Source of the DNA: an uncultured Acidobacteriota bacterium
GTDB taxonomy: Bacteria > Acidobacteriota > Vicinamibacteria > Marinacidobacterales > DATDRI01
DNA: 64,000 nucleotides
Assembly (NCBI GenBank): GCA_963722765.1
Contig: CAVROO010000023.1
Location: forward strand, 22,726 to 86,725
Reading direction: 5' to 3'
Shown here: positions 4,999-62,732 of the stretch, one piece after another
How positions within the stretch are numbered: the first letter of the stretch is position 1
Layout of the letters: each line of letters begins with the position of its first letter
Program-made: the position numbers and the translations under genes
Notes under the pieces: generated by a model
Seen by the model: only the letters and a program-made list of their open reading frames with translations
The model's database searches: none
What the model was told of the DNA's origin: nothing

Positions 4999-5164
4999 GC
5001 CGGTCCATCTGTTGGTCGTCGAGCGGCTGAGATTCCAAAACCTCCAGGCGAAAAAACGAATCTCGAGCTCCACAGCTCAATCGTCCGAGAAGGAACGGAA
5101 TGTCCACGTTCGTACCTCGGTCAAGAAAAACAGTAAAATGCTCGTCCGATCCTCAGGAGGTAAC

Positions 5165-8093: not shown

Positions 8094-8137
8094 CTAGGTC
8101 TGTCTCCTTTAGAGGTAAATCCGGCAAGGCCTGATCA

Positions 8138-9406: not shown

Positions 9407-9506
9407 TCTTGAATTCTGTTCGATCGGTCAGAATGCCGCAAGTTTCAGTCCATCAAGCGCTTGGCCTCATGCGCCCCCGGGGTCAGGCTTGCAATTCTTG
9501 AATTGT
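9390..9506. repeat. Repeat locus 1: two copies each of the 13-mer AGAATTCAAGAAT and the 10-mer GCCTGACCCC (minus-strand sense), spanning the protease start codon
   Basis: Reverse complements read at 9405-9417 (exact), 9494-9506 (12/13), 9390-9399 and 9479-9488. The 27-nt blocks around them match 24/27. The same words recur at 22780-22967. Confidence 0.6.
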
Positions 9507-9535
9507 CGGAATCGGATTGATTCGGCTGAAAGACA

Positions 9536-9552
9536 GGAGTCAAAAAGACTCC
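9536..9552 (-). terminator. Possible intrinsic terminator after the SBBP gene
   Basis: Minus-strand GGAGTC-ttttt-GACTCC hairpin 18 nt after the stop, followed by tgtctttc. The stem is short and the U-tract weak. Confidence 0.35.
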
Positions 9553-9569
9553 CTACAACCGCCGGCAGC

Positions 9570-22667: not shown

Positions 22668-22779
22668 AAATCCAACTCTCTCGTTGATTTTCCGACCAGC
22701 CACGCCGCAAGACTTTTCGTACGCTTCGATGGAATGGGCCTGTATAAACTAAGGTGAGATTTTGGACTTCCCATATCTA

Positions 22780-43032: not shown

Positions 43033-43843
43033 TCACCTCCCGAGAAACTTGGGTTTCCGTTTCTCGCGGAATGCGGCATGACCTTCGTGCCAGTCCGCGC
43101 TGTCCATGCAGGCGAGGATCGCCTTCGTCTCTTGCTCGAGCGCCGTCTCGAAGTCGCGGCCCGGCGAGCGCTGCAGGAGCTCTTTGGCAAAGGCGATGGA
43201 GATCGGCGCTTTTTCGGAAATCTCGAGAGCGAGCGCGCGAGCTTGCTCCATGAGGCGTTCCACCGGACAGCAGCGAATCGCAAGCCCAAGCTCGACAGCG
43301 GTTTTTCCATCGATGACCCGGCCGGTGAAAACCAGTTCTTTGGCCCTGGCCAAACCGATGAGGCGCGGCAGGATGTGAGTCACACCGCCGCCCACGAACG
43401 TCCCGAGTCCGGTCTCGGGCAGCCCGAGCGTGGCCTCCTCGGCCATCAGGAGCAGGTCGCAGGCGAGGGCCATCTCGGTTCCCGGCGCCTCGTGCCGGCC
43501 CGTTGACGGCAGCGAGGACGGGCTTGGGAAACTCGACGATCTTCCGGATGGTTTCGTGGGCGAGCCGGATATATTCCTCTCGCTCGGTCGCGCTCCGTTC
43601 CCCGGACGAATGCTTCTTGAGATCGGCGCCGGCACAAAATGCTTGCTTCTCGACTCCGTCCCTTTCGAGAACCGAGCCGGTGAGGATCAGACAACGGATC
43701 CCGTCTTCGGCGCCTGTACTGGCAAGGACGTCCTGAATCTCGAGGTACATCTCCTCGATCACCGCGTTCATGCGTTCGGGCCGGTTGAGCTTGACCGTGG
43801 CCAAAGGTTCGTTGACGAGAAGCTCAATCGTCTCGTAGCTCAT
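43033..43843 (-). CDS. Enoyl-CoA hydratase/isomerase (crotonase) family protein, frameshifted as assembled near 43482
   Basis: ATG at 43843 after GGAGG. LILTGS...AFCAGADL continues in the second frame as GTEMALACDLLLMAEEATLGLPE. The stop is 1 nt before the acyl-CoA synthetase ATG. Confidence 0.8.
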
Positions 43844-44074
43844 CTCTACCTCCGTCACGAGCGTGTACGGCATTCTGCACCTGTCTGTCTATCCGGGACA
43901 CAGGCCAGAATTATATACGAGCCCTTCCATAGAGACGTCCAACAAAGTGTGGCAGACAGGAACCGATGTGGCGATTCTGCAACGCGGAGCGGTACGAAAC
44001 AACTCCCCTCACAGGCGCCTATCCATCAGCGCCTCAAATACTTCCTCGAAACGGGTGTGCTAATATCCAACGCC

Positions 44075-44920
44075 ATGGTTTCGGAACGTGAATTGCAGTC
44101 GGCAGGAAATGCAAAGGAGTTCGAATCGGAGGTGGCCAAGGCGACTCGAGAACTGGAGGAAAAGAACCGTGAGCTACGTCGGCTGAACGAGGAGCTTTAC
44201 TACATTCAGCGACGATTGGCTCGAATGGAACGACTCTCCGCAGCACAGCATGTCGCGGCGCGGTTCGCCCACAAGATCGGAACGCCCCTCAATCTCATCT
44301 CGGGACATATACAAGTTCTTCTGCAAGGCCGCAAAGAGGACGAGCCTCTTTCAGAAAAACTGCAATTGATACAATCTCAAATCGGGAAACTCGAAACGAT
44401 CGTTCGGGAAATAATGGATGAGACACGCAAGACCGATTCTCGAGCTCGAGTCCTTCGATTTGACCCGACTGCTCGACCGGATTTGCGCGCTCGTGGAGCC
44501 CACCTTCGCCGGCCGGGGGATTCCGGTCGACAGGAAGTTCGCCAGCCGATCCGCTCACGATTCTCGGGGACGAGGCACAACTCGAGCAAGTGTTTCTCAA
44601 TCTCTTCAACAACAGCCTTGGACGCCATGCCGGAAGGAGGCACACTTACAGTTCGGACGGAACCAAGCGAAGAAGGTGTTCGGGTCGAGCTCGTAGATTC
44701 CGGCGAGGGAATGACGGAAAGCGCTCTTTCTCAGATGTTCCGGCCCTTCTTCACGACGAAGGAAATGGGACGCGGGACGGGACTCGGTCTATCCATCGTC
44801 AAGGAAATTCTCAGCGCTCACGGCGCGACCATCGATGCAGAAAGTGAGCTCGGACAAGGCACCACGTTTAAGCTCGTGTTTCCTGTGGGGAACAGACGAT
44901 ACGGAGGTATCAGGAAATGA
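44075..44920 (+). CDS. Short cytoplasmic sensor histidine kinase (coiled coil + HisKA + HATPase_c, no sensor domain), three frame breaks as assembled
   Basis: H-box RFAHKIGTPLNLISGH, N-box QVFLNLFNNSLDAM, and DSGEGM and GTGLGLSIV. The reading frame switches near 44430, 44540 and 44622. Confidence 0.75.
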   Translation: MVSERELQSAGNAKEFESEVAKATRELEEKNRELRRLNEELYYIQRRLARMERLSAAQHVAARFAHKIGTPLNLISGHIQVLLQGRKEDEPLSEKLQLIQSQIGKLETIVREIMDETRKTDSRARVLRFDPTARPDLRARGAHLRRPGDSGRQEVRQPIRSRFSGTRHNSSKCFSISSTTALDAMPEGGTLTVRTEPSEEGVRVELVDSGEGMTESALSQMFRPFFTTKEMGRGTGLGLSIVKEILSAHGATIDAESELGQGTTFKLVFPVGNRRYGGIRK

Positions 44921-46293
44921 CTCGGCTCCTAGTAGCTGACGACGACCCCTTGACCTGTGATTTCTTCAAGGAGATCCTCCAAGAGCTTCCGCTCGAGATT
45001 CGACCTGTCTCGACCCTAGAAAAGCTGTTATTCTCGCAACGGAAGATCGTTTCGATGTCGTCATCAGCGACATCAACTTCGAGCAGGCAACGACCGGCAT
45101 CGACGTGCTGCGGGCCATCAAGAAGGCGCAGCCCGAAACTCAGGTGATTCTGGTGAGCGGTTTCGGAAGCCTCGACACCGCAATCGCCGCCGTTCGGGAG
45201 GGCGCTTTCGACTACGTCAGCAAGCCCTTCAATGTGGAGGAAGTTCAGGCCACGGTCCGCCGAGCCCTGGAAAAGCGAAAAGTCGGGCTGGCCGTTCAAG
45301 GACATGAAGGTGCTGCGGGAGAGGAGCCGATTCTGATCGGCTCGAGCGCCAAGATGCTGGCGGTCTACAAGACCATAGCCTATGTAGCCGACTCGAGAAC
45401 GACGGTACTCATACAAGGTGACAGTGGTACCGGAAAAGAGCTCGTGGCGCGTGCGATCCACGCCAAGGGCCCTCGTAGCTCGAAACCCTTCATCGCAGTC
45501 AACTGCGGAGCTCTGACCGAGACCCTGCTTGAAAGTGAGTTGTTCGGTCACTGTGAAGGGGTCGTTCACGGGTGCGGTAGCGGACAAACACGGCCTTTTC
45601 CATGCCGCCCAGGGAGGGACTCTCTTTCTGGACGAGATCAGTGAGACCAGCCCGGCACTCCAGGTCAAGCTGCTGCGGGTCCTTCAGCAGGATGAGTACA
45701 CTCCGGTGGGAAGCACGAAAGTCGCTCAAAACCGACGCTCGCGTCATCGCGGCAACCAATCGGGACCTCGAGAAAAGGGTCGACGCGGGCCTTTTCCGTG
45801 AAGACCTTTTCTACCGGCTGAACGTTGTCACCATCGAGGTTCCTTCGCTTCGCGAGCGCCGGGAAGACATCCCCAAGCTCATTGCCTATTTCATACGGCG
45901 ACTGGCCTCCAAGGGACAAACGGCGCCTCAATTCTCCTCCAAGAGCGCTCGAGATTCTGGTGCGATACCCCTGGCCGGGCAACGTTCGGGAGCTGGAGAA
46001 CACCATCGAGCGGCTGGCCCTTTTCAGCCGGGGCCGTCTCATCGAGGTCCAGGATCTTCCGGAAAAGATCAGGCAGAAGCAGGTATCCTTAGAGAGCAGA
46101 ATGTTCAAAGAGCTCCCGTCACTGGAGGAAATGGAGCGCCGCTACCTCTTCCACGTGCTGAAGGCGGTGGGAGGAAACCGGAAGACGGGCCGCCGAGGTC
46201 CTGAAAATCGATCGGCGAACGCTATACCGCATGCTCGACCGCTTCGAGCCCATGGACGAAAAAGGGACTCCAGAGGACGAAGTCGGAGCCTGA
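44917..46293 (+). CDS. Sigma-54-dependent response regulator (NtrC family: REC + AAA+ + Fis-type HTH), about five frame breaks as assembled
   Basis: [19 protein letters not shown] (REC), GDSGTGKE (Walker A), GSFTGA (GAFTGA variant), GGTLFLDEI and RRTLYRML (HTH). Breaks near 45020 (A4 run), 45548, 45718, 45925 and 46185. ATGA overlap with the kinase gene. Confidence 0.85.
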
Positions 46294-47671: not shown

Positions 47672-49380
47672 TTATTCCCTCGACGGAGGCTTGTCTTTCA
47701 AAGCTTCGTCCAAGAGTCGATCGCGGCCGTAAACGTCATTTCTGAAATGGATGGTTCCTGCCTGGTCAACCCAGCTCGTCCAATAGAGGAGATGCACTGG
47801 AATAGGTCGAGGCAGCCGAACGGTTTGTTCCATACCTTTCTGCGAAGCGGCAGTAATGTTCTCGGGGCTCCAACCGGCGGCCTCGCGCAGGAGATACTCC
47901 GCCAGCTCGAGAGGCTTCTCAATCCGGATACAACCGGAGCTGAACGTGCGCTCCGTCCTCCGGAACAACTCTCGGGAGGGCGTATCGTGGAGATAAACGT
48001 TGTAAGGATTGGGAAACATGAACTTCACTCCACCCAAGGCGTTATCCGGACCGGGTTCTTGACGAAATCGATAAGGAAAGCCTTCTCGTTTCAAGCTCGA
48101 CCAGTCAACCGCCGCCGGGTCAACCTCCTCGGCCTCCGAGCCCCAGCCGCGAAATACTTTGATGCTCTTCTTCGCCAGATAGTCTCCTTCTTTCTGAACC
48201 GCGGGAAGGACGTCTTGAACGGCAAGACTCGGCGGAACATGCCAGTACGGACTGAATACGAGATAGGTCATGGGGGAGCTGAACACCGGGGTTCGCCGAT
48301 ACGGTCTCCCAACAACAACCCGCATCGCCAGCACCATCCTTCCACCTTCGATGACTTCGAGATCGAAGCCGGGGATGTTGACAAGAATGTAGCTCTCACC
48401 CAAATCGAGAGGTAGCCATCGCCATCGCTCAAGATTCAGCTCGAGTTGCCGGACACGATCTCCCGCCGAAACGTTGAGGGCCGCCAACGTACCCTTGCCT
48501 ACCACACCGTCGGTATCGAGTCCGTGACGCCGCTGAAATCTTTTCACCGCCTCTTTTACGTCGGCATCAAACCGCACCGGTACCTCGGATGTTGCCGGGG
48601 CCAAATCCCCTGATGCTTCGAGCCGGCGGCGCAGGACGGTTACACGGTCATCCCGGTCGTCGAGCTGCAGCTTGGGTCCGTCCGCGAATCCGAGTCCAGC
48701 CACCTTCCCCGGCGAGGTTTCGATAACCGGCGAGCGCCTCCTTCATCCTCGAATATCCGTCGTCTCTCGGAAGCAGGCCACTCAAGGCTTCCGAGATATT
48801 GCCCGAGTCGAGAGCCGATTCGAGCAGACTGACAAAGTCCGCCTCTTTCGATTCGACGACGTGCCATTCGGTATCGAAAGTCGTGGGATTCACGCGGCCG
48901 GAGAGCAGATGGGAAGCGTAAACGATGAAGCCGTCCGTCAGCAACAAGTCGAGATCGACCAGACGTCGAGGGTCGATAGGTTTACCCGTCCGTGCGTCGA
49001 GCTCGATTTCACCCAACGTTGTGTCTATCTTGGCCAGGTGGTAGACGCTTGGATCCATGCCCTCCTGTTCGGCGTTGCGTAACGCTTGCAGCAAACGCAC
49101 CGCTCGAGGAAGGGCTCCTTGGTCGGCACTCCATGCGGGCTGGTAAAGACGTTGTTGATAAAAGAGAGGTAGGAATCGTGAGGCGTAGATCGCCTCTCCA
49201 CCCACCTCGATTCGATGCAGAGCTCCGGCCGCCTCGATTCGATTGCGTATGGACTCGGCGACTCGTTCTGCTTGGGAGGCTGCAGAAAGGGCGGGAACGA
49301 GAGATCGAATAGAGCATCCAAGCTCTCAAAATAAAACAAAGCTTCAAAGTCCCGCCCACGCCCGAGCCACTATTGCCCAT
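47672..49380 (-). CDS. L,D-transpeptidase of the YcbB/LdtD type (PG-binding + YkuD domains), two frame breaks as assembled (near 48685 and 49300)
   Basis: VKRFQRRHGLDTDGVVGKGTLAALNV is PG_binding_1. LHDTPSRELF...FSSGCIRI is the YkuD catalytic Cys. The N-terminal part sits in ORF 48648..49205. The start near 49380 is approximate. Confidence 0.8.
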
Positions 49381-49409: not shown

Positions 49410-49830
49410 TCAGGAAGATTCCCCTTCCGCAGCCCACGTCAAGAGTCCGGGCATAAACGGAGTGGCCAGGTCGGGGTGGTTGGGCAAGACACGAAAGGTA
49501 TATCCGTGCAGCCCACTTCGCTTGCAACGGACTCCTCGTGACTCGAAGGTGTGATTTCCTTCGTTATCGGACTCGGTCCTGTGCATGGTCGCCGCCTGGG
49601 CGCTCACAAATTCACCATCCGAGCTCAGGAGCCCGAAGAAGAGTTGTACCGAGACGGCCGCGGGGCCGAGATCACCAAGCTGGACGCGCGCACGAACCTG
49701 TATCTCATCTCCAACGGAAAGCTCGGCCTTCGCATGGTCACCTGAATCCACCGGCCCCAAACGGATCCGATTCCAAGATTCTCGGACGCCACGCTTCCAA
49801 GTCGCAAGGGCCCTGGCTCCGCTATCAAAT
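49410..49830 (-). pseudogene. Alpha-glucan phosphorylase (GlgP-type), C-terminal about 140-codon remnant only
   Basis: ..LATWKRGVRESWNRIRLGPVD..VGDEIQVRARVQLGDLGPAAVSVQLFFG...SGLHGYTFRVLPNHPDL..PGLLTW matches the tail domain of a protein of about 850 aa. The frame opens right after a TAA and no upstream part exists. Confidence 0.55.
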
Positions 49831-49883: not shown

Positions 49884-50474
49884 TCAAGCCGCCTCTCCCG
49901 ACCGCCTCGTCCGGCTCGGATGGAGTTTCTTACTCAATGCGAGGATTCTATCCTCCAATTGCCACTGGATCCTGAATCCCCGTCTTTGCGCCATCTCGAT
50001 TACCTGTCGGTTGTCGGGAGTCGTTACGGCAACGATCTCTTTCACGCCCCCGCGGCACACCACGTCCAGACAATAGTCCGCCAGCGCACTGCCGAGTCCC
50101 AGGCCTTGCCAGCGATCCGCGACGAGAACGGCCACCTCTACCGATCGTTGGAGCGTTTCGGCCGCCAGGTCGCCGAAGCCGATCAGTTTTTTCGTTCCCT
50201 CAGATTCGATCTCGGCCACTATCACTTTCTCATGTTTGCCTTCGACGTCACAGAACCTCGATGCCAGCTCGCCCAGGCGCTTGGTCACATAGTGGAAGCG
50301 GCGATAGAGCGATGTGGGAGAACAGGACTCCAAAAGCTCCTGCAGCAGAAGTTGATCTTCCGGTTGCACCCCTCTCAACACAACAGACGTACCGTCCCTT
50401 AGCCGGGCGGTAACGGGACCTGACCCGACCGCCGAATCCAGGGGCGTCATCGATTTGTGGGAGGTCTGGGTCAT
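49884..50474 (-). CDS. GNAT-family N-acetyltransferase (Pat-type stand-alone domain)
   Basis: LRGVQPEDQLLLQELLESCSPTSLYRRF and the acetyl-CoA site RWQGLGLGSALA. The start lies 4 nt after the upstream gene's stop. Confidence 0.8.
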   Translation of the reverse strand: MTQTSHKSMTPLDSAVGSGPVTARLRDGTSVVLRGVQPEDQLLLQELLESCSPTSLYRRFHYVTKRLGELASRFCDVEGKHEKVIVAEIESEGTKKLIGFGDLAAETLQRSVEVAVLVADRWQGLGLGSALADYCLDVVCRGGVKEIVAVTTPDNRQVIEMAQRRGFRIQWQLEDRILALSKKLHPSRTRRSGEAA

Positions 50475-50478
50475 GTAT

Positions 50479-51048
50479 CTATTTCTTTTTCAACACCGCT
50501 CTCCATCCACTGGGATGCGGAAAGGGGGTGAAGTGGCTCGTCTCCGAGAAACGATCCACCACGCAGAAAACGTTCGGATCGACATCCCTCGCCGCTCGAA
50601 TGGCTTCCGGCAGGTGTCAACGTGCCATGGTAGCGAAGACCAACCGGCTGCGGGAGCCGTTGACCTCACTTTGAAAGACGCCGAGCACGCGGCCGAAAAA
50701 GGAAAGCGGCTCGACGATTGCTTTCCCCTTCGCCGAGATCATGCGAACCACGCACTGTCCGAAAGCGAGCCTTCGCTCGAGGACAATCCCGACTGCATTG
50801 CCGGCGGCGAAACCGGCGGCATAGGCAACGACGAGCACAGGGTGCTCACGGACTCTCAGAATCACCTGGGAGATGGACGTCATCCACAACAAGACCTCGA
50901 AGAAACCGAGAGCCACGGACAGACGTAGTCTTCCGTTGACGACCATAATAGTACGCATCGTGCCCAAAGACACATCGACCACCCTCAGTACAAAGATGAG
51001 TCCCGCCAACGCCCACACCGGCAGCCCGTTATCGAGGAATGATCCCAT
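50479..51048 (-). CDS. UPF0316/DUF2179-family small membrane protein, interrupted by an in-frame TGA (50617-50619)
   Basis: LIFVLRVVDVSLGTMRTIMVVNGR...GFFEVLLWMTSISQVI is typical of the family. After ..ATMAR-TGA the same frame continues as HLPEAIRAARDVDPNVFCVVDRFSETSHF, a DUF2179-like end, to the TAG at 50479. Confidence 0.7.
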
Positions 51049-51049
51049 T

Positions 51050-52125
51050 TCACGATCCTTCCTTCGGAAGACCACCGAGTCCGGGAGCCTCTTTGGGATA
51101 GAGGTAGCCTCTCTTGAGAACCACCGCCCCCGCGAAGAGGTCGCCCTCCAAATCGAGATGGCCGTCGAGATCGGCGTAAACGACATTGGGCCGGGCGAGG
51201 GCGTAGTGGAGCCCAGCCGCAATGGCCAGCGCCGATTCGTCCATGCAGCCCACCATGACCTCCAAGCGAGCGGCAAGGGCGACGGCATTGATTTGGAGCG
51301 CCTCGTCGATACCGCCCACTTTCATGAGCTTCACATTGACCATGTCGGCGAAATCCCGACGCGCCAAAGAGAAAGCGTCGCGCAGGCTCATCAGGCTTTC
51401 ATCCGCCATAACGGGTATGGCGAGTGGCGGCGACCACGCGCCCCATCAGATCGGGTTGGTTGCGCGGCGTCGGCTGCTCGAGGATCTCGACTTTCGCCGA
51501 TTTGGTTCGGCGCACAGAACTCGATAGCTTCCGAGGCGGAATAGCCTTGGTTGGCGTCGCACCGAAGCGCCACGCCCGCGCCTATCACCTCCCGAACACG
51601 AAAAACCCGGTCAATGTCCTCCTCGAGGTTACTTCCAGTCTTGATCTTGACGGCGCGAAAGCCCTCCTGCACAAACTGTCTGGCACGCGCGGCCGTTTCG
51701 TCCACACCCATGATACCGATGGTGATGCTGGTCAGGATGCGGTCTCGATACCCACCCAACACTCTCCACAAGGGTTGACCGGCCGCCTTGCCGAGAAGAT
51801 CGTGAAGCGCCATGTCTACGGCCGCACGGGCGGAAGGCCGGTCGGGGATCTTTTGCTTCAACTTCACAAGTAGACGTAGACGTCGAAGCGGATCGGCGCC
51901 TTCGAGTAGAGGAGTGGCCACCTCGCGGAGCGCGGCGAGGACATCGGACGCCTTCTCGCCGGTGACGGGCTCGTCGGGAGCCGCACATCCGTAGGCGACG
52001 AGTCCCGTGTTGGTTTCCAGGCGGATGAAAACATTGGTCGTTTTCTCGACCGTCTCGTAAGCAATGGTATAAGGTTCCCGTAGACGCATCTCCCACGGCC
52101 AGATCTCGATTCGATTGATTCGCAT
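51050..52125 (-). CDS. Enolase-superfamily dipeptide / N-acylamino-acid epimerase (L-Ala-D/L-Glu epimerase-like), two frame breaks as assembled (near 51495 and 51420)
   Basis: FRAVKIKTG (KxK), [14 protein letters not shown] in the shifted frame, [16 protein letters not shown] and YADLDGHL together make up the complete catalytic set of the family. Confidence 0.85.
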
Positions 52126-52126
52126 T

Positions 52127-54481
52127 TTAAAAACGCCTCTGGTAGATCTCGTCGAGGGTCATACTCTTGAGAGATTCCACCAGCTCTACGAGATGGCGGA
52201 TCATGACCTCCCACATCTTCTCACCCTTGGACCGGCTGGCGCAGGTCGGGTCTCCGAAGACGCCACTGGGCGTGATTCTCGCCGTGCGTGCGTACCAGCC
52301 GACCCCTCGTAGGGACGCGAGATCGAGATACCGGCTCGAAAACTTGGGAACGAACTTCTCGGCCCGCTCCATTCGCACCAACTCCGGTCTCACCGCGAGC
52401 GCCGTGGACGTTTCGATGTCACCGGCATGAACGTCGTTGGGGACTTCGGACATGGCAGCAATGTCTGCATCGGAGGTCTCGCCGGTGTCCACACAGGTGA
52501 AGATATGAGCGTCGCGGTTGATCATCTGAGCGGCGAAATGAAGCGCCGGTTCATTGCCTCCGTGGCCGTTGATGATGACCAGTTTGGTGATTCCGTGCTG
52601 TGCGACGCTCATTCCGATTTCATAAACGAGTTTCGACAACGTTTCGGGGCCGATACTCACCGTGCCGCTGAAGTCATCGTGGGCGTAAGAGACACCGTAA
52701 GGAATGAGCGGCAATACCAGGGGCTTCGGATTCGAGCACGAGGCCGCCACTTGTTTCGCGAGGTAGTCGGCATCGAACGCATCGGTATCGAGGGGCAGAT
52801 GGGGTCCGTGCTGCTCGATAGAACCCACCGGCAGCAAGGCCAAGTCCACTTGCTTGAAACGGTGCTCGGCTTCCGGCCAGGTCAGCTCGGCCAACAAGAA
52901 TCGATGCGACAAGCTCTTATCCTCCGCAGCAGCAGCGTCGTCACAGGTTTCGAACCGATAAGGTAGGTCCGCATCGGGGTCTTCGAGCGGATCGGTCTCG
53001 ACCCACAACCGTCCGACGTGCTTGACGGCGCCTTCGGTATGTTCCATCAGAATCCTATACAAGGGAACCCGAAGATCCATGGGAATCGCATTCATGGGCG
53101 AACGCTGGCGGTCGAATCGGAGCTTGAGCACTTCCGGTTGCGCCTCGGCTTTGACCTTACCAAGACGAGGGCGATCGATCTTTCCCTGGCTGTAAAGTAG
53201 ATGCCCCAGATGGCGGACCGCCGGCAGCTCCTGATGTACGCCCTTTTCTACGAGGCTCTTCAGGCAGTACTCCATTTGCTTGTCGCTGAAACCACAGTCT
53301 TTAGGATCCTTGTCGAAAGCGACGAGCATGCCGACGATGCGCCGGCACTTTTCGCACTTGCCGCAGGGACGGACCTTGTCGTTTTCCACGTGGGTCGCGT
53401 GGCAAGAGGTCTGCAATCTCAACAATTCGGGATAGCGCGAAGCGAGAGTCTTCTGGATGAGCATCTCCGACATGGGCCGGAGCAACGAGAACTGGTTGAT
53501 GCCCCAGCCCTTCCTTCGAAAGTAGCTGCTCATGGTCTCATCGAAATATCGACTCTGGTCGTAAAGGCCGTTGTAATGCGTGATCCCCCGGAACGTCGTT
53601 CTTTCCGTCGTGTCGTACTCATCCCCCAGCAGCAGACGACCCACGCCGCGTTGTTTAAGGAGCGGTAAGGCCCCGAAAAGGAAAACCGCTACAGTCCAGA
53701 GTCGGATGGGATACTCGTCGGATCGCACTTCGGCGAAATCCTCTCGGACGAAAGGAAGATGGCGAAGCATCCAAGAAAAGACCCGATCGGAGTTGGTCCA
53801 AACGCGAGCCGTATGGGGAATCTCACGCGTGAAGTACCGATAGGCATTGAGAGCGGTGAACCAGTGACGGCCCGACTCGTTCAGGAACACGGGGTGTGTC
53901 TCCCAGCCCATCTCGCGTAACAACCCGAAGGTCAAAAGACTATCTTTCCCACCGCTGGACAAAACGGCGTGCTTCTCCGTCGAGGCCGCCCAAGGTTTCA
54001 GCCGCTTGTCCTTCGTTTCCGGAAACACGAGCTCCGCCCGAAGGTAGTTCTTCCTACGCTCCGGAGGGAGGCCTGCCGCCTCTCCAACGAGGAAAGGATT
54101 GGGCTCGAGGAACTTCTTGACATAAATCTCCCGTGCCGTGTTCTTGGCCATTTCCAGAAGGAACGCCCGGTCCGCTTTGTCGAAGGTCCCGTGAAAAACA
54201 ATCGTCCGGGAGAAAAGGCCGTAGTTGAGAGCCAACTGAGCGGCGATCATGCCGGCCAGATTCGCGTCTCCCAAATCTTCCGGGTCGAAAACCGGCTCCT
54301 CGTATTTGTACGCGAGCTCCGTGGTGAACGTACCTTTCGTGGTAGTGACCTGGTAGGCAACGGCAAAACGATCGGGCTTCAGACGGACCGGTCCGACCTC
54401 GAGACGATCTATCGCAAGGAGCGGATTGGACTCGTCCAAGTCACGAATGTCCTCTATCAATTCAGTCTGTTTCTCGTTCAT
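52127..54481 (-). CDS. Fusion protein: unknown N-terminal domain + PP-loop ATP pyrophosphatase-like domain (QueC-like Cys cluster) + creatininase-family amidohydrolase
   Basis: 784 aa, intact. SGGKDS at aa 176-181, PCGKCEKCRR at aa 372-381. The creatininase-like C-terminus from about aa 527 has LLPVGSIEQHGPHLPLDTD, IINGHGGN and VHAGDIETS. Confidence 0.75.
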   Translation of the reverse strand: MNEKQTELIEDIRDLDESNPLLAIDRLEVGPVRLKPDRFAVAYQVTTTKGTFTTELAYKYEEPVFDPEDLGDANLAGMIAAQLALNYGLFSRTIVFHGTFDKADRAFLLEMAKNTAREIYVKKFLEPNPFLVGEAAGLPPERRKNYLRAELVFPETKDKRLKPWAASTEKHAVLSSGGKDSLLTFGLLREMGWETHPVFLNESGRHWFTALNAYRYFTREIPHTARVWTNSDRVFSWMLRHLPFVREDFAEVRSDEYPIRLWTVAVFLFGALPLLKQRGVGRLLLGDEYDTTERTTFRGITHYNGLYDQSRYFDETMSSYFRRKGWGINQFSLLRPMSEMLIQKTLASRYPELLRLQTSCHATHVENDKVRPCGKCEKCRRIVGMLVAFDKDPKDCGFSDKQMEYCLKSLVEKGVHQELPAVRHLGHLLYSQGKIDRPRLGKVKAEAQPEVLKLRFDRQRSPMNAIPMDLRVPLYRILMEHTEGAVKHVGRLWVETDPLEDPDADLPYRFETCDDAAAAEDKSLSHRFLLAELTWPEAEHRFKQVDLALLPVGSIEQHGPHLPLDTDAFDADYLAKQVAASCSNPKPLVLPLIPYGVSYAHDDFSGTVSIGPETLSKLVYEIGMSVAQHGITKLVIINGHGGNEPALHFAAQMINRDAHIFTCVDTGETSDADIAAMSEVPNDVHAGDIETSTALAVRPELVRMERAEKFVPKFSSRYLDLASLRGVGWYARTARITPSGVFGDPTCASRSKGEKMWEVMIRHLVELVESLKSMTLDEIYQRRF

Positions 54482-55569
54482 GCGCTTCTTCTCGAACGTT
54501 TAATCTCGGCGATGATCTCGCGGACGATTTCTCCCGGACCGTCGAGCAAAACGTCGGTTGTAGGTAGGTCTATCTGAGAGTTAATGGCACTACAGACCCG
54601 TCTTACCTTCTCCATAGGTATCCCCTCATGATTCACGGCGATGGCAACGACCGGCCGACCCGATATAAGCTCGACGGCCTGAATCTGGGTGGGCAGTCCA
54701 TGAAGCTTGTAACCGGGGAACCCGTCGTATTCCTTGCGGGCCGGGGCATGCTGGAGCACCACCGCGTCCGGCCTCCCGGCGGCCAGGATTTCGAATCCAC
54801 CCGGATAAGCCGGATTCAGTAGACTGCCTTGACCTTCGATCACGATAATGTCGGGTTGCGCCTCTTTCCAAGCGCTCCAGATGACGTGCTCGATCTCTCC
54901 CGCAACAAAGTCGTTGACCAGGCTGTCCAAAACGATCGAGTAACGGGCCCCTTGCAGCCAGGCGGTCTGACCGGTCCCAACCATCTCCGCGGTGAAACCG
55001 GTCTCTCGAAATCCTTCAACCAATCGCCAGGCCGTCGTTCGTTTTCCCACTGCCGAGTCCGTTCCCAGAACGGCGACCTTGAACGACCGAACTTCTTCGA
55101 TCTTTCCGCTGAAGAAATGGAGACCCGAGACCGGCGGTGGTCTACGGATATCTCTCAACTGCACTTGGTGAGCGCGGGCCAGCTCAACCAGCGCCGGGTC
55201 GTCACTCAGGTAGTCGTGAAGACCGCAATCGACATGGAGGCCCAGACGAATAGCAACTCCGATGTCTTCTTTGGCCCAGGACGGAAGACGGCCTCCGTCG
55301 GGAGCCAAACCGACAACGAGATGGGTCGCCGGCGCTCCGCCACGCCGAGCTTTCTCAACCGCCACCCCGATTTCGGAAAAAATCGGAATAGCCGATGGCC
55401 GGCCGTCGAGCACCTCGCCTGCGTCGCGACCCGCGCAGGCCGAGTCCACCACCGAGAGGACTTTGTAACGCTTCGTAAAACGCACCAGCCCGTGAGCGGT
55501 TTTACCGTTCGTGGTGTTGAAAGCCTTTTCGCAATAGACGATGGCATTGCCTTCCTCTACTTCTTTCAT
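54478..55569 (-). CDS. DUF1611-family P-loop protein (DgcN-like)
   Basis: 363 aa, intact. GTDSAVGKRTT P-loop, IVIEGQGSL, and the general DUF1611 layout. ATGA overlaps at both ends. Confidence 0.8.
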   Translation of the reverse strand: MKEVEEGNAIVYCEKAFNTTNGKTAHGLVRFTKRYKVLSVVDSACAGRDAGEVLDGRPSAIPIFSEIGVAVEKARRGGAPATHLVVGLAPDGGRLPSWAKEDIGVAIRLGLHVDCGLHDYLSDDPALVELARAHQVQLRDIRRPPPVSGLHFFSGKIEEVRSFKVAVLGTDSAVGKRTTAWRLVEGFRETGFTAEMVGTGQTAWLQGARYSIVLDSLVNDFVAGEIEHVIWSAWKEAQPDIIVIEGQGSLLNPAYPGGFEILAAGRPDAVVLQHAPARKEYDGFPGYKLHGLPTQIQAVELISGRPVVAIAVNHEGIPMEKVRRVCSAINSQIDLPTTDVLLDGPGEIVREIIAEIKRSRRSA

Positions 55570-56777
55570 GTTCGTCTCCCTGTGAGTACGGCTACGTAGC
55601 GATCGGGCGCCAAGGGCTCACTTTGATGCCGTTCTAAAAAGGCCTGAAGTCCGGCGGTTGAAGCGGGTAGGATGCTAAGCCCTTCCGAATCACGCAGCTT
55701 TTTCGATACCGCCAGCATGTTCTTGTCGCTGGCATAGGCGGCCCAACCGTTCGTCTGCTTGACCGCGTCGAGGCAGATGTTACCGTCGATGGAATGCCAG
55801 TTCACCAGCGGTTCGTTGATGGGAGTTTCTTTGATGCTTCTCGGCGCAAGATCCTCGCAGCGATCCAGTTTTTTCAGAAAAGAACTGACAATCGGATTTT
55901 TGCCGTAAGAGGAGCCCGCCACCATTTTCGGCATGCGGGACGTCTTGCCGCGACGGTAAAGACTCTGGAAGCCGCGGTGGATTCCCGCAAGGGTGGTGCC
56001 GTTGGAAACAGGTACCGCCACTACCGCCGGAGCATCCCTGAGCTCATCGTAGATTTCAAAAGCGATTTGACCGTAGGCTTGAAGCTGCAGAACCGTGTTG
56101 GCGCCGCCCGGATTGGCATCGTAGAGCTCGTCTTTTTGCGCGCGCCGACAGCTCTCCTCGACGGCGCTCTCATAGTCGCCCTTCACACGGACGATTTCGG
56201 CGCCTTGGGATTCCATCTCCTGGATCCGCCGGGTTTGAAAGGCTTCCGGAATATAGACGAGGCATCGAAGACCCGCCGTAGCCGCGGCGAAGGACATGGC
56301 GGCGCCGAAGTTGCCGCAGGTCGCCACGGTCACTGTGTCAAAGCCACGCCGTAGCGCGTCCATAGCTTGAGCGAAAGCGATACGGTCTTTCTGCGTTCCG
56401 GTGGGATTTCCACCCTCGAACTTGAGGTAGAGCTGCCTTAGGCCTACCTCACGCTCGATGTTTCTCGCCCGAGACAGGTTGGTGTCGCCGACTTCGGAGT
56501 CGAAAATGTCCTCGTAGGCTTCCAGACGCTCGGTTAGAGGTAAGGTCGCGTCGGAGGCAATCTTCCGCTGTCGCTCCTTATCAGGAGCAAGGATAGGATC
56601 ATGAGAAGTTGCGCCGTTCAGCAGCGGCCGAACGTTTTCCGTATCTCCAACCGTTTGTTCATGCCCGATAGGGTCCAAGGGTCGCTCCTTAATGAATGAG
56701 TCTCCGTTCATTCTCCGGCCGCATAAAGGCCATCGACTCTCGTAAGGAGACAGAAAGGGCAAGAAGCGTGCCACCAT
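55566..56777 (-). CDS. PLP-dependent fold-type II enzyme (threonine-synthase / Trp-synthase-beta-like)
   Basis: LKFEGGNPTGTQKDR (PLP lysine), ATCGNFGAA, and VPVSNGTTLAG (phosphate loop). The start is uncertain: ATG 56777 or ATG 56711. Confidence 0.75.
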   Translation of the reverse strand: MVARFLPFLSPYESRWPLCGRRMNGDSFIKERPLDPIGHEQTVGDTENVRPLLNGATSHDPILAPDKERQRKIASDATLPLTERLEAYEDIFDSEVGDTNLSRARNIEREVGLRQLYLKFEGGNPTGTQKDRIAFAQAMDALRRGFDTVTVATCGNFGAAMSFAAATAGLRCLVYIPEAFQTRRIQEMESQGAEIVRVKGDYESAVEESCRRAQKDELYDANPGGANTVLQLQAYGQIAFEIYDELRDAPAVVAVPVSNGTTLAGIHRGFQSLYRRGKTSRMPKMVAGSSYGKNPIVSSFLKKLDRCEDLAPRSIKETPINEPLVNWHSIDGNICLDAVKQTNGWAAYASDKNMLAVSKKLRDSEGLSILPASTAGLQAFLERHQSEPLAPDRYVAVLTGRRT

Positions 56778-57341: not shown

Positions 57342-59591
57342 GTGTCCATTGAAGTTCGATTGAGCCGCGAGATGAAGCTCATGGACATCACCATGATCGG
57401 CGTTGGGGCCATGATTGGTGCAGGGATTTTCGTTCTCACAGGTATCGCCGCCGGCGTGGCCGGACCGGCACTGCTTCTCGTCTTTCTGCTCAATGGGGTC
57501 GTTGCACTTCTAACCGCGACGGCCTATGCGGAGCTCGGTAGCGCCATCCATGGTGCCGGCGGTGGCTATCTCTGGATCAAAAGGTCACTCCCCGATCCGA
57601 GCGGCTTCCTCGCCGGATGGATGGACTGGTTCGCCCATGCCGTAGCCTGCTCACTCTACGCTCTGGGATTCGGCGCCTATTTCCGGTTGGTGCTCGAGTT
57701 CCTCAACATCCCCGAGCTCTCGGTCGGATTCATGGGACTCGAGAAATGGTTGGCCGTTGTTTGCGTTGCCCTTTTCTCCTATATCAACTTCAGCGGGGCA
57801 TCGGAGACAGGCAAAGCCGGCAACGTCGTTACGATAGGAAAAGTCGCCATCATCGGCGCCTTCATCGTAGCCGGCCTTTGGACTGTTGCAAATCGTCCGG
57901 GCTGGCAGGTCTCCTTCAAGCCGTTTCTGGCGAACGGTTGGGGCGGCGTCTTTGCCGCCATGGGGCTCACTTTCATCGCTTTCGAAGGCTACGAGATCAT
58001 CGCCCAGACCAGCGAGGAAGTGCAGAACCCGAGGCGGAACGTGCCGAGGGCCGTTTTTCTTTCACTGTTGATCGTCGTCCCCATCTATCTCTTAGTGGCC
58101 TTTGTCGCGATCGGGGCGGTGACCCCGATCGAAGGACTCAGCGTGACGGAGTACTTGGCGCAAGAGAAGGAGATTGCGCTGGTATCGGCGGCCGACCAAT
58201 TCGTGGTCGGTGGCGGCCTCGTCATCTTGGTGGGCGGGCTTTTGTCTACGCTTTCGGCATTGAACGCTACCATCTACTCCTCCTCACGAGTGGCCTTTGC
58301 CATGGCCCGTGACGCCAGTCTCCCGCAGTGGATCGGCCGCGTTCACCGCCGGCGTCTCACTCCGCACATCGCCATTTTTTTCTCTGCACTCATCGTCATT
58401 ACCATGGCCATTACCCTTCCCATCGAAGAGGTGGCCGCGGCAGCGGACATCATGTTTCTGCTGCTCTTCGCCGGGGTGAACATCGCTCTCATCCGCCTGA
58501 GGAAACTACGTCCCGATCTCGACCGCGGCTTCCGAGTACCCTGGGTACCCTTTACACCAATACTGGCCATTATCACCATGCTCTTCCTCGCCGTCTTCTT
58601 GTTCTTCCACTACCCCATGGCCTGGGTGGCCGCCGGCGGCTGGATCGGCGTCGGTTGTCTCGTTTATTACAAATACAGCCATCGACGGGAGGTGGCTTTC
58701 GTCGAGCGAGAGAAGTGGATGGAGCGGATCGAGCGGAAAGAATATCGCGTCCTGGTCGCCGTCTCGAGTCCGCGGAGCGTGGAATCTCTCATGGAAGCCG
58801 CTTTGCCGCTGGCCCGTAGCCACCAGGGCGAGCTCGTCGTGGTTTCGGTCGCCGAGGTGCCGGAGGGCGAAAGTCTCATGCGTGAACGCCCGTTGAACCG
58901 CGAGCTCGAAGAGGTCTTGCAGCAGGCCGTCCGGCTCGCCGAGGAACGCGGCATCAAAGCACGACCCGTGGTCAAGATCGGGCACCGGATCAGCCATTCG
59001 CTGGTTCAAACCGCCCGGGAGGAAGCCTGTAATTTCCTCATTATCGGTCAGCCCACGAGCCAATCTTTTTTCGAGCGTATCGTCGCGACGATCGTCGAAC
59101 GAGTTCTGGAAGATGCGCCTTGTCGAGTGGGCGTCGTTTACGGCACCCTTCGCCGCGATGGGATTCGGGGGATCGCATTGCCCGTAACCCGGGGCATGAA
59201 CTCCAAGCTGGCAGCCTCGCTGGCTCCCGCCTATGCCGATTGGTTTGGTGCGAAAACCCGTCCCGTCACGATTGTCGAACGGGAAACAAACGAAGAAGAG
59301 GCCCAAAAACATACTGCCGAAGCGGAAATGACCCTGAGAGAAGTCGGACTCGAAGAATCTCTCCAAGTCTTACGTCGGCGCGACGTCGGTCAGGGACTAT
59401 CCGGTGCCGTCAGGATGGGCGAGCTGGTCCTCATCGGAGCGCCGAGCTCAGGGCCGGTGGCGCCGCTTCTGGGGGAGACCATCCCCTCGTTGATGGCCAA
59501 ACGAGGCCGTACACCCGTCATGGTGGTGCGCGATGTGGAGGAGCGGCGAGCTCGTCGCTTCGAGCGTGTCTTCTTCTCAAGCAACAAGTAG
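57342..59591 (+). CDS. APC-superfamily amino acid permease fused to two C-terminal universal stress protein (Usp) domains
   Basis: 749 aa, intact. ITMIGVGAMIGAGIFVLTG and about 12 TM helices, then two Usp-like units (YRVLVAVSSPRS..., IALPVTRGMNSKLA...VMVVRD). Confidence 0.85.
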   Translation: MSIEVRLSREMKLMDITMIGVGAMIGAGIFVLTGIAAGVAGPALLLVFLLNGVVALLTATAYAELGSAIHGAGGGYLWIKRSLPDPSGFLAGWMDWFAHAVACSLYALGFGAYFRLVLEFLNIPELSVGFMGLEKWLAVVCVALFSYINFSGASETGKAGNVVTIGKVAIIGAFIVAGLWTVANRPGWQVSFKPFLANGWGGVFAAMGLTFIAFEGYEIIAQTSEEVQNPRRNVPRAVFLSLLIVVPIYLLVAFVAIGAVTPIEGLSVTEYLAQEKEIALVSAADQFVVGGGLVILVGGLLSTLSALNATIYSSSRVAFAMARDASLPQWIGRVHRRRLTPHIAIFFSALIVITMAITLPIEEVAAAADIMFLLLFAGVNIALIRLRKLRPDLDRGFRVPWVPFTPILAIITMLFLAVFLFFHYPMAWVAAGGWIGVGCLVYYKYSHRREVAFVEREKWMERIERKEYRVLVAVSSPRSVESLMEAALPLARSHQGELVVVSVAEVPEGESLMRERPLNRELEEVLQQAVRLAEERGIKARPVVKIGHRISHSLVQTAREEACNFLIIGQPTSQSFFERIVATIVERVLEDAPCRVGVVYGTLRRDGIRGIALPVTRGMNSKLAASLAPAYADWFGAKTRPVTIVERETNEEEAQKHTAEAEMTLREVGLEESLQVLRRRDVGQGLSGAVRMGELVLIGAPSSGPVAPLLGETIPSLMAKRGRTPVMVVRDVEERRARRFERVFFSSNK

Positions 59592-59597
59592 GCGCTT

Positions 59598-60281
59598 ATG
59601 CAACAACAACCATCGGGTCCGCTTGCCGAGCTCGGGCTAAAATTCGTCGGCTACCTACCCACCTTGGCGGGCGGTCTGTTCGTAGTGGCCCTCGGCTTGG
59701 CCGTTGGCTGGATCGTGAAACGCGCCGTGATCCGGGTCCTGATCTGGCTACGGCTCGATCGCCTCGGGGGACGACTCGGTTGGCGGGCCGCCTTCGGCAA
59801 GGGCGATGTCCGTGGCGCGCTTTACAACGTCGCGGGTTCAGCAGCCGCGGTGGTGGTGGTTCTCGTCTTTCTCGACAACGCTCTTCAGATATGGGGACTC
59901 ACCGTCCTTTCCCGCTTGCTCGAGAGCTTTCTCATTTACCTGCCCAACCTCGCGATGGTCGCCCTCATTGCCGGAGCCGGCTTGGTCCTTTCCAATGCCG
60001 CGGCCAACGGTGTCGAACGTGCTCTAGAGGAGGAGGATTTTGCACGCGGGCGACTGGTGGCGAAGGTGTGTAAGGCGGCTCTGCTCTCGGTGGTCAGTGC
60101 TCTGGCACTCTGGCAGCTCAACTTCGCAAGGGAAATCGTTTTGTCCGCGTTCCTCATCATTTTCGGTGCTGTAGGTGTTGCGTTTGCCGTGGCCGTCGGG
60201 CTGGGCTCGGCCAAAGCCATCGAGCGTGGCTGGCAGGCCCTATTTGGAAATCGAGAAGATGACCAGAACCGAAACGGATGA
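59598..60281 (+). CDS. Membrane protein with repeated conserved-TM-helix units (CmpX / mechanosensitive-channel-associated type)
   Basis: 227 aa with 4-5 hydrophobic helices, each followed by short basic loops. Family assignment comes from the overall pattern only. Confidence 0.5.
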   Translation: MQQQPSGPLAELGLKFVGYLPTLAGGLFVVALGLAVGWIVKRAVIRVLIWLRLDRLGGRLGWRAAFGKGDVRGALYNVAGSAAAVVVVLVFLDNALQIWGLTVLSRLLESFLIYLPNLAMVALIAGAGLVLSNAAANGVERALEEEDFARGRLVAKVCKAALLSVVSALALWQLNFAREIVLSAFLIIFGAVGVAFAVAVGLGSAKAIERGWQALFGNREDDQNRNG

Positions 60282-60705: not shown

Positions 60706-61914
60706 ATGGATGAATCGAAGTTGAGTGCACAAACGAATCTAAAGCGGAACCCGGCAAGTTGGAGCGGCAGCCGGTCAAGAAGTTCGGCACCTTCCTAGGG
60801 GTTTTCACTCCCTCCGTACTGACGATCCTCGGGCTCATCATGTACCTGCGCTTCGGATGGGCGGTTGGAAACGTCGGTTTGCCCTTGACTCTTTTGATCG
60901 TGCTGCTCTCGAGCTCGGTCACTTTCCTGACGGCGCTCAGCGCCTCGGCCTTGGCAACGAATATGCGCGTGGGCGGCGGCGGAGAGTACTACATGTTCGC
61001 CCACAGCTTGGGGTTGGAGCTGGGTGGTGCGATCGGGATTCCGCTGTTTCTTTGTCGAACGTTGAGCATTACCTTTTACTCCTATGGTTTGTCGGAATCG
61101 ATCTTGTGGCTGTGGCCTTCCGAATGGGGTGCGGTTCCGGAGTCTGCCGTTCCGTTGATTGCCGCCATCACGGTTATCACCACAGCCATGGTTGCCGGCA
61201 AGAGCGCGGAGCTGACGCTCAAGCTCCAGATCCCCATCATGATTGCGGTCGGGGTCTCCCTCCTCGCGATGATCGGCGGCGTCTTGAGCGGTCCTACGCA
61301 CACGCCGGAGTTGGTGGCCACTTATCGGACGGCACCCGAAGGTTTTTGGTACGTATTGTCCATCTTCTTTCCTGCCGTCACCGGTTTCACGGCCGGCATC
61401 GGTTTGAGTGGAGACCTGAAAGACCCAAGGCAATCCATTCCCGTTGGAACACTTTTGGCCGTCGTGGTTGGCACTCTCGTTTATCTGTCCGTGCCGACCT
61501 TTCTCTCCCTTACCGGGCGCGTCAGCATGGAAGAGTCGGCAATGCCTGGTGTCGGCGTTTGGACCTCCGTGGCCGTTTTGGGAGCTTGGTTGGTCTTCCC
61601 CGGCATGTGGGGCCATTGCTCGAAATGAACAAGAGCACGAGACTCAGGCCAAGAACCTGGCGGCTCTTCCTGGGGAGGTCCGTACTGGAGCCAGTACGGA
61701 TATCATCATGGCGCGTTCAGAGCATAGCATCCGGGACGTCATCCACGAGCACAGTGCCCGAGCCGACGTGGTCTTTCTCGGACTGCAAGAACCTCGCCCC
61801 GGCACCGAGTCCCGCTACGCACGATGGCTGGAAGAGATGGTCGAGGGGCTCAACACCACGGTTTTCGTGCGCAATGCCAGCGAGTTCGCCGGGAAGTTGA
61901 TCTCGCGAATGTAG
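60706..61914 (+). pseudogene. Cation:chloride cotransporter-like (SLC12/APC) gene with a frame break near 60750 and an internal deletion near 61615
   Basis: KKFGTFLGVFTPSVLTILGLIMYLRFGWAVG to ..FPGMWGAI covers about 7 TMs. It then jumps directly into the extreme C-terminal tail (..DVIHEHSARADVVFLGLQEP...VFVRNASEF). Roughly half the protein is missing. Confidence 0.65.
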
Positions 61915-61931
61915 TCAACCCTGAAACACCT

Positions 61932-62732
61932 TCAAGCAGAACCATCCCCGTCGGACAGGACGGTTAGGACGGGAGAAACGGTAGACGCCAAGGCTTGGCG
62001 AATCATTTCCATCGTCTCCGGAACAGGCTCACCGGTCCATTCATCCATGAAGAACTTCTTGAGCTCGATGGCGAGAGCACAACCGGACCCGGGGAAATTT
62101 TCCTGGACCCACTTCGAAAGATACGCTCCCCGGAACTTGACATTCTCGCGAACGTCCAAGTGTCGTCCCCCGAAGTCAAATTCGCGTAAAGCCGACATGA
62201 ACGATTCGACCACCGGCCCCCAACGCTCACGGTCCAAGTTGCCGGTGCCGACGTTCACCTCCGGATTCTCCTCCTGCGCTGCCGGGGGTGCCTCGGGCCC
62301 GGACCGCCGGTGATTATAGGAGTGCAGATCGAACAAAACGAAACGCTCGTGACTCTTTTCGACCTTCTGCAATAACTGCTTCAGCTCGGCGTAGAACGAA
62401 TCGTGCAGAGATAAGGAAAGGTCCACCTTTTCCGGCTCGAGCGGTTCTTTCCATAAGTTCAGCCCCCAGGCATCCTCGGGCCGAAGGTAAACCGCCCTCT
62501 CGCGCGGCCGGTTCAGATCCACCTCGAAGCGTGACCGGTGAACCACAACCTGTGTGTCCGCCACCGTCGTCCACTCGCCTGTGAACGGATCCTCCTCCCG
62601 CAACCTTTCCGACTCGGGGAGGGCAAACCGCGGTCTCAGTTCCTGGCGGATCGCGTGCCCGTTATGGATCGCGGTCGCAACGAGAGGGCCTTCCCCCGCA
62701 ACGATTGTCCAAGTTGGTTCGCCCACTATCAC
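61932..62732 (-). CDS. N-formylglutamate amidohydrolase (FGase) family protein (second paralog)
   Basis: GTG at 62732 after GGAGA overlaps the upstream stop (GTGA). ATAIHNGH, FEVDLNRPRE and FDLHSYNHRR are family-like motifs. Confidence 0.75.
   Translation of the reverse strand: MIVGEPTWTIVAGEGPLVATAIHNGHAIRQELRPRFALPESERLREEDPFTGEWTTVADTQVVVHRSRFEVDLNRPRERAVYLRPEDAWGLNLWKEPLEPEKVDLSLSLHDSFYAELKQLLQKVEKSHERFVLFDLHSYNHRRSGPEAPPAAQEENPEVNVGTGNLDRERWGPVVESFMSALREFDFGGRHLDVRENVKFRGAYLSKWVQENFPGSGCALAIELKKFFMDEWTGEPVPETMEMIRQALASTVSPVLTVLSDGDGSA

Follow-up and report, generated by a model that had tools for sequence, protein, structure and literature searches.

A QueC-like PP-loop module joined to a creatininase-family hydrolase in a conserved four-gene operon of an uncultured acidobacterium

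We analysed a 64,000-nucleotide stretch of DNA from an uncultured Acidobacteriota bacterium (contig CAVROO010000023.1 of assembly GCA_963722765.1, forward-strand positions 22,726 to 86,725), referred to below as the window, and within it one gene on the minus strand at 52127–54481. The list of open reading frames and the translation give 784 codons with an ATG start and no internal stop; the original prediction had described a single uninterrupted frame of this length, correctly, but had not stated its strand. Judged from the translation and its homologues, the whole frame is predicted to encode a MurL/QueC-like adenylating module followed by a creatininase-family hydrolase. Three partner genes lie on the same strand. 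The first gene of the operon (55566–56777) encodes a Thr-synthase-like fold-type II pyridoxal-phosphate (PLP) enzyme, recognised by Pfam PALP, PRK06381 and PDB matches. The upstream partner (54478–55569) is a DgcN-like protein with Pfam DUF1611_N and DUF1611 domains, and the downstream partner (51050–52125; Pfam MR_MLE_N/C and tblastn) is a YkfB-like dipeptide epimerase whose gene is frameshifted. The genes are tightly packed: the start codon of the fusion gene overlaps the stop codon of the DUF1611 gene (ATGA), and the epimerase ATG starts 1 nucleotide past the fusion-gene stop. By tblastn, the order PLP enzyme, DUF1611 protein, module (with or without creatininase domain) and MR_MLE protein was found with the same orientation in 13 of 13 loci, namely the window and 12 others numbered L001 to L012. 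Each operon partner is 45–70% identical across lineages, from Desulfobacterales to Chitinophagales.

The fusion is genuine and is not an assembly join, a point that the original prediction had marked for checking: it is called as a single gene of 769–802 amino acids (aa) in five independent assemblies from ENA, NCBI and JGI. A search of ~5.8 billion proteins with the fusion protein returned 2933 matches at E≤0.001. The best 120 of these 2933 are 733–839 aa long, cover 93–100% of the query and share 61–85% identity with it; their source labels read Acidobacteria, Deltaproteobacteria, Syntrophobacterales or plain “bacterium”. With thousands of homologues, the architecture is far beyond chance. 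Thus, the original prediction was mistaken in calling it unusual. It had allowed that the fusion might prove to be a common and characterised family; common it is, but no paper describing it was found in the literature, and in this respect the statement that it is not a described enzyme stands. The literature search covered the architecture, the operon and the partner genes and found no relevant paper, and a search for DgcN gave only unrelated “DGCN” papers. The database label for the fusion protein is only “creatininase family protein”, while automatic JGI names mention both halves, including 7-cyano-7-deazaguanine synthase. Among 41 aligned orthologues mean column identity is 70%, with invariant residues in every part of the protein. 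A genome-contig scan, run with a single-sequence query and poorly conserved peptides, returned 6 loci, from metagenome-assembled genomes of Desulfobacterales and Chitinophagales; tblastn against plasmids gave no match.

The two halves also occur apart. In the Chitinophagales locus L008, the module gene (7983–9494) and the creatininase gene (9484–10284) are separate and overlap by 11 nucleotides; the creatininase gene has its own ATG, and the stop/start overlap stands where the fusion protein has its interdomain linker. That linker (aa ~505–530, of which aa ~513–530 correspond to 52892–52945, minus strand) differs in length and sequence between orthologues and is modelled with low confidence, the predicted local distance difference test score (pLDDT) falling below 50 at aa 513–518. 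Two related operons, L012 and L013, lack any creatininase. Since fused, split but adjacent, and creatininase-less states all exist, the two halves are likely to be functionally linked, which again argues against an artefact.

We modelled residues 1–525 with AlphaFold2 (AF2) from a divergent alignment. The model is confident (pLDDT 92.5, predicted template-modelling score [pTM] 0.91), and residues ~15–512 form one compact unit. The N-terminal 165 residues, earlier regarded as an unknown domain of their own, are indeed unmatched by known folds but are not separate; they are integral to the ~500-aa module. In the model this N-terminal accessory subdomain (aa ~16–165; 53987–54481, minus strand; pLDDT >90) consists of a three-stranded beta meander plus helices. 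It has no Pfam, NCBIfam or PDB match and carries the family-specific conserved residues N86, F90 and D104, of which N86 is invariant in 30 of 30 divergent family members. The PP-loop ATP-pyrophosphatase core follows (aa ~166–395; 53297–53986, minus strand), assigned by Foldseek and by the MurL hidden Markov model (HMM) NF041275, and the module ends with a C-terminal accessory subdomain (aa ~396–512; 52946–53296, minus strand; pLDDT >90) that packs with the core, has no Foldseek match and, like the N-terminal one, carries conserved residues.

The best Foldseek matches of the module in the PDB were QueC-type PP-loop proteins, followed by tRNA thiolases, with coverage limited to the core. They comprise QatC (E=1e-6), QueC 2pg3 (E=5e-6), 3bl5 (target-normalised template-modelling score 0.74) and Cap9 (E=6e-4). 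The original prediction of a QueC-like PP-loop ATPase in the middle of the protein is therefore supported, with target-normalised scores of 0.67–0.74 for QueC. A profile search of the PDB with the family alignment gave only marginal PP-loop matches (E ~0.05–0.1) and no solved relative. The SGGKDS motif (aa 176–181; 53939–53956, minus strand) comes directly after a strand formed by residues 167–175, as in the signature of the PP-loop superfamily. Across the 41 orthologues S176, G177, G178, K179 and S181 are invariant while position 180 varies, and 25 of the 30 divergent members have the pattern S-x-G-[KR]-[DE]-S, which in 24 falls on the PP-loop position of the alignment. Further along, Cys360 in an S-C-H motif and the sequence PCGKCEKCRR (aa 372–381) together make up a QueC-style Cys4 site, predicted to bind zinc and resembling a zinc ribbon (C360, C373, C376 and C379; 53345–53404, minus strand). 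All 30 divergent members keep the first three of these cysteines, and 29 keep C379. SGGKDS and PCGKCEKCRR lie exactly where the original prediction had placed them, and fold and putative zinc site together are those expected of a QueC-like structure.

QatC belongs to QatABCD, and Cap9 belongs to type IV CBASS (cyclic-oligonucleotide-based anti-phage signalling system). The module resembles QueC, Cap9 and QatC in its Rossmann-like PP-loop fold, its S-x-G-x-D-S motif and its putative C-terminal Cys4 zinc site. From its likeness to QueC and Cap9 one would expect a carboxylate to be adenylated and then attacked by ammonia or an amine; Cap9 itself adenylates a carboxylate, which an amine then attacks (bioRxiv 10.1101/2025.04.06.647259). 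Unlike all three, the module has ~150 extra N-terminal and ~115 extra C-terminal residues that form one unit with the core, and it has neither deazapurine nor defence neighbours nor a PADLOC match. HMMER with aa 1–525 as query found 472 clusters among 1.84 billion representative proteins. Among them are stand-alone modules of ~460–520 aa, a fusion of DUF1611 with the module (P0124, 855 aa) and a fusion of the module with a DVU_1556-type methyltransferase (P0123, 825 aa). A further protein, P0206, is listed with P0123, P0124, P0151 and P0153 among the module proteins that have a variant architecture or lack SGGxDS.

Across all of Pfam and NCBIfam, MurL (NF041275) was the sole family model other than creatininase models to match the fusion protein. 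It aligned with aa 302–391 (E=4e-8) at 31–32 bits relative to a 700-bit cut-off, and it matched 11 of 30 family members, at best with E=7e-10 and 38 bits over model positions 130–354 of 447. Because these scores are far under the cut-off, the module is probably a distant relative of MurL that belongs to a different family, and is not itself a MurL. The link is remote by sequence, yet MurL is the only characterised family that sequence comparison detected for the module. The two are similar in size (~450–500 aa for the module and 447 model positions for MurL). MurL is a peptide epimerase that requires ATP and Mg, releases AMP and acts unidirectionally on the C-terminal residue of a peptide, and it was published as a protein without known domains (PMC5808125, PMC8788868). 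Use of ATP and Mg with release of AMP at a peptide C-terminus fits a PP-loop adenylating enzyme encoded beside a dipeptide epimerase. In contrast to MurL, the fusion protein is joined to a hydrolase and has no mur or MurD2 context (no MurD2 or Mur-ligase Pfam family was found in any neighbourhood examined), and its substrate is almost certainly other than a UDP-MurNAc-peptide. This homology and the invariant operon, both absent from the original prediction, are the most informative clues to function.

The C-terminal half of the protein (aa 531–768; 52178–52891, minus strand) matches Pfam Creatininase PF02633 over the full profile (positions 1–238 of 238) with E=1.9e-72 and 244 bits versus a gathering threshold of 31.3, in agreement with the creatininase-family domain originally proposed, and Foldseek matched it to creatininase 1q3k with E=7e-12. 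The creatininase reference ligands are E34, H36, D45, H120 and E122, plus H178/E183. In the fusion protein E556, H558, D567, H640, H685 and E690 align with ligands of the Pseudomonas enzyme (1q3k/1j2t) and are invariant in orthologues. The position of Glu122, however, is taken by Gly642 (in NGHGGN), so that the ligand set is nearly but not fully complete; of the complete metal-binding set previously seen from about aa 527, six putative ligand residues are conserved, and completeness does not hold. The best named model was MftE (TIGR03964), at 166.4 bits just short of its cut-off of 172, and creatinine amidohydrolase (TIGR04448) reached 105 bits out of a required 235; IolN and ArfB came next, ArfB weakly (E=4e-7). 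No mycofactocin genes (radical-SAM or PqqD-like) were present in the neighbourhoods examined. Creatininase-family enzymes hydrolyse cyclic amides. The domain shares with the members of this family (MftE, creatininase, ArfB and IolN) the full Pfam match, the fold and the putative ligand residues E556, H558, D567, H640 and E690, but differs from them in scoring under every equivalog cut-off, in having no mft genes near and in being joined to an ATPase module. From its sequence, we read it as a probably active, MftE-like binuclear-metal amide or peptide hydrolase. The fusion protein as a whole appears to belong to the QueC-like branch of the PP-loop superfamily and to the creatininase family. It falls outside MurL, MftE, the defence systems, and QueC and creatininase in the strict sense.

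The domain content would permit a role in nucleobase, deazapurine or pterin metabolism, in which a QueC-like enzyme would act on a 7-deazaguanine-type carboxylate and be coupled to an ArfB-like formamide hydrolase. The QueC fold, the ArfB match and the JGI names with 7-cyano-7-deazaguanine synthase are consistent with this idea. However, in the window, L001, L002 and L009–L011, the six long loci, queD, queE, queF, tgt and riboflavin genes are all absent up to a distance of ~8 kb from the gene, its invariant neighbours encode enzymes that handle amino acids and dipeptides, the Pfam QueC match is non-significant, and MftE scores far over ArfB. We therefore consider such a role very improbable. 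On two of these grounds, a Pfam score under the cut-off and the missing que and tgt genes, identification of the protein as a true QueC was rejected.

Still less credible is that the gene is an artefactual join, a mycofactocin-like peptidase for a ribosomally synthesised and post-translationally modified peptide, or a QatC/Cap9-like defence enzyme. The window does contain many frame breaks, the MftE model comes almost to its cut-off, and QatC and Cap9 are top structural matches. Against this, an artefact was rejected since the same single gene occurs in independent assemblies. A mycofactocin peptidase was rejected on the lack of mft genes in the neighbourhoods, there being no radical-SAM, MftB or precursor genes near. 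A defence system was rejected because PADLOC found nothing for the fusion protein or its three operon partners, and the gene sits among metabolic genes, a setting that is conserved across phyla.

The operon partners point to amino-acid chemistry. The PLP enzyme scored 428 bits with PRK06381, a legacy “threonine synthase” model, above the cut-off of 266 bits, and its best PDB matches are Thr synthases (E ~1e-26). The DUF1611 protein matched 2g0t, 2obn and 7xrj in the PDB and reached 151 bits with the DgcN model NF041892, relative to a cut-off of 480. The truncated epimerase copy of the window scored 64 bits with DgcA, relative to a cut-off of 400, and an orthologue matched the L-Ala-D/L-Glu epimerase of B. 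subtilis (1jpm) with E=5e-70. Like YkfB (1jpm/1tkk), the operon epimerase keeps all catalytic and metal residues (K160/K162, D191, E219, D244 and K268) and the dipeptide-specific D321-x-D323. Unlike YkfB, the operon epimerases carry Glu at the position of Arg24 (7 of 7). Arg24 of YkfB binds the side chain of the substrate Glu, at a position that reads the side chain of the C-terminal residue; the change from Arg to Glu would thus suggest a different, non-acidic and possibly basic residue at the C-terminus of the substrate.

DgcN is a DUF1611 N-acetyltransferase for D-Glu, and DgcA is an enolase-superfamily N-acetyl-D-Glu racemase. The same two families flank the fusion gene in the operon, which suggests a logic of acylation, inversion and deacylation in which the creatininase domain would serve as the deacylase. 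In contrast to the Dgc pair, the DUF1611 protein and the epimerase of the operon are far under the DgcN and DgcA cut-offs, the epimerase is nearer the YkfB type and keeps D-x-D, and the operon adds a PLP enzyme and a PP-loop module that have no Dgc counterpart.

The reading we favour, and to which we would give about an even chance, is that the module activates a dipeptide or N-acyl amino acid by adenylating its carboxylate, after which the fused MftE-like domain cuts an amide bond. In the same evenly balanced measure, we take the protein for a bifunctional enzyme of a conserved four-gene pathway whose substrate is small and amino-acid-derived, a free dipeptide or N-acyl amino acid being the likeliest. 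We infer the adenylation chemistry, the order of the steps and the class of substrate from the observed folds, motifs, conservation, fusion and fission states and gene order. In this scheme the PLP enzyme would make or convert an amino-acid building block, the DUF1611 protein would carry out DgcN-like acyl transfer or ligation, and the YkfB-like epimerase would invert the C-terminal residue. The module (residues ~15–512) would use ATP to adenylate the substrate carboxylate with release of pyrophosphate; we propose adenylation because QueC, Cap9 and MurL are reported or proposed to use an acyl-adenylate. The acyl-adenylate would then either be captured by an amine or ammonia, giving an amide as in QueC and Cap9, or have its alpha-carbon made labile, as proposed for MurL. 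The product, or the intermediate that follows, would have an amide or peptide bond cleaved by the hydrolase (aa 531–768), and fusion would couple the two steps. The two-step amide exchange or synthesis/proofreading pair suggested by the original prediction may also be at work.

The first fate of the acyl-adenylate leads to a competing explanation. Here the module would be an amide-forming ligase or amidase of the QueC/Cap9 kind that joins a carboxylate with an amine or ammonia, either to build a modified dipeptide or to amidate one. With further acetylation or methylation, such a product might serve as a compatible solute or as a signal. The creatininase domain would either take off a residue used for protection or as a carrier, or work towards ring closure, the creatininase reaction being reversible. 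The nearest structural relatives of the module all form amides; the operon is followed by GNAT genes in the window, in L001 and in L013, and a methyltransferase is fused to the module (P0123) or adjacent (L002). Mechanosensitive channels, amino-acid or ion transporters and GshB/RimK-type ATP-grasp proteins are often neighbours, and high conservation would suit primary metabolism. Channels and transporters are, however, common and non-specific neighbours, so that an osmotic association would be one drawn from context, and a hydrolase fused to a ligase would be odd for net synthesis. We regard net amide synthesis as a tentative alternative, with a clearly smaller chance than the favoured activation and cleavage.

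The second fate corresponds to ATP-driven stereoinversion of the MurL type, in which an adenylated C-terminal carboxylate would labilise the alpha-proton, possibly by way of an oxazolone or other cyclic intermediate, and the creatininase domain would resolve this intermediate stereoselectively to give one-way L/D conversion. MurL, the sole characterised sequence relative, is unidirectional and AMP-forming; cleavage of cyclic amides is a creatininase-family activity; and the DUF1611/DgcN and MR_MLE/DgcA partners carry D-Glu-handling names. On the other hand, an enolase-type epimerase is already in the operon, the likeness to MurL is distant, no MurD2-like ligase was seen in the neighbourhoods examined, and some operons have the module without creatininase. 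Stereoinversion by the module is therefore unlikely, and we rank it below the amide-forming ligase because the operon has its own epimerase and the structural relatives form amides.

Several observations weigh against the favoured reading of carboxylate activation followed by amide cleavage. The operon already contains a cofactor-independent epimerase, which makes a MurL-type epimerase role for the module look redundant, and in the window this partner is frameshifted. The likeness to MurL is weak, 31 bits of 700 over ~90 residues of the fusion protein, and Pfam QueC PF06508 reaches 12.5 bits as opposed to a cut-off of 22 (E=0.1) over a stretch of ~29 residues at the Cys cluster. The PP-loop motif is missing from a few divergent relatives, the creatininase fusions P0151 and P0153 among them. 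Because the operons L012 and L013 have no creatininase, the hydrolase step would be accessory to the pathway and not its core. Finally, the full-length AF2 model has a pTM of 0.65, its relative orientation of the two halves being of low confidence, and substrate channelling is on this account conjecture.

More tentatively, and with no better chance than the amide-forming ligase, the module and the creatininase domain could form the core of an undescribed multi-phylum pathway that combines MurL-like C-terminal activation, stereoinversion and selective amide cleavage. If so, this pathway would be a new route for making or salvaging D-amino acids, or for synthesising modified-dipeptide solutes, and MurL would join the QueC-like PP-loop superfamily, which would explain its ATP-to-AMP chemistry. 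In Xanthomonas and Stenotrophomonas, MurL is a candidate target for antibiotics, and its mechanism has been called unclear; a confident QueC-like model with conserved residues offers a handle on how it works. If the module ligates or epimerises dipeptides, QueC-like enzymes would reach beyond deazapurines and protein N-terminal tagging to small-peptide metabolism. The operon joins four enzymes of amino-acid chemistry in fixed order with strong conservation and could represent a new route for dipeptides or D-amino acids; given this fixed order, the function of one member would annotate thousands of genes from sediments, soils and anaerobic reactors.

Two lineage-specific genes trail the operon on the minus strand, encoding a DUF5698 membrane protein (50479–51048) and a GNAT acetyltransferase (49884–50474), both also present in L001. 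Frequent outer neighbours across loci include amino-acid transporters, GNAT genes and methyltransferase genes: a GNAT gene adjoins the stand-alone module in L013/L014, and a methyltransferase gene adjoins the cassette in L002. In L008 the gene immediately upstream of the cassette is a fusion of GNAT and CN_hydrolase (4168–5703). Three genes, for FGase, a MATCAP/DUF1704 carboxypeptidase and a GshB/RimK-type ATP-grasp ligase, stand as a trio next to the cassette in L001, L002, L009 and L011; the window has FGase (61965–62720, minus strand) and ATP-grasp (63021–63992, minus strand), and MATCAP was not found within it. Mechanosensitive channels or ion transporters occur near the cassette in L002, L009 and L011. 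In the window, a 749-aa amino-acid permease with a C-terminal universal-stress-protein domain (57342–59591, plus strand) is divergent from the operon and is followed by a frame with a mechanosensitive-channel transmembrane helix (59598–60281, plus strand). Just past the other end of the operon, 47672–49205 (minus strand) contains an L,D-transpeptidase gene (YkuD and peptidoglycan-binding domain, 343 aa) and, adjoining it, a frame with a “Scaffold” domain (48648–49205). Rfam and tRNA scans of the window gave nothing, and a promoter and terminator scan of 49–58 kb found sites in numbers no higher than in shuffled sequence.

The original prediction had also described the region as prone to frame breaks, and comparison with L001, which shares 83% identity over the fusion protein and ~91% over the regulator and permease described below, bears this out. 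In the epimerase gene, tblastn places the coding sequence in frames -2, -3 and -1, with shifts near 51515 and 51420. The orthologues are intact at 354–357 aa, and the broken copy is either a pseudogene or the product of indel errors. A sigma-54 response-regulator gene (44917–46281, plus strand), 91% identical to the L001 copy, has at least 5 frameshifts, lies in at least five frame segments and is preceded by an intact histidine kinase gene (43430–44920). An AA_permease/SLC12 gene (60717–61911, plus strand) keeps only aa 28–326 and 678–777 relative to L001, with a change of frame, and a glycogen phosphorylase (GlgP) remnant comprising the last ~130 aa (49428–49823, minus strand) follows the GNAT gene. 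The losses in permease and GlgP look like deletions relative to the close relative L001.

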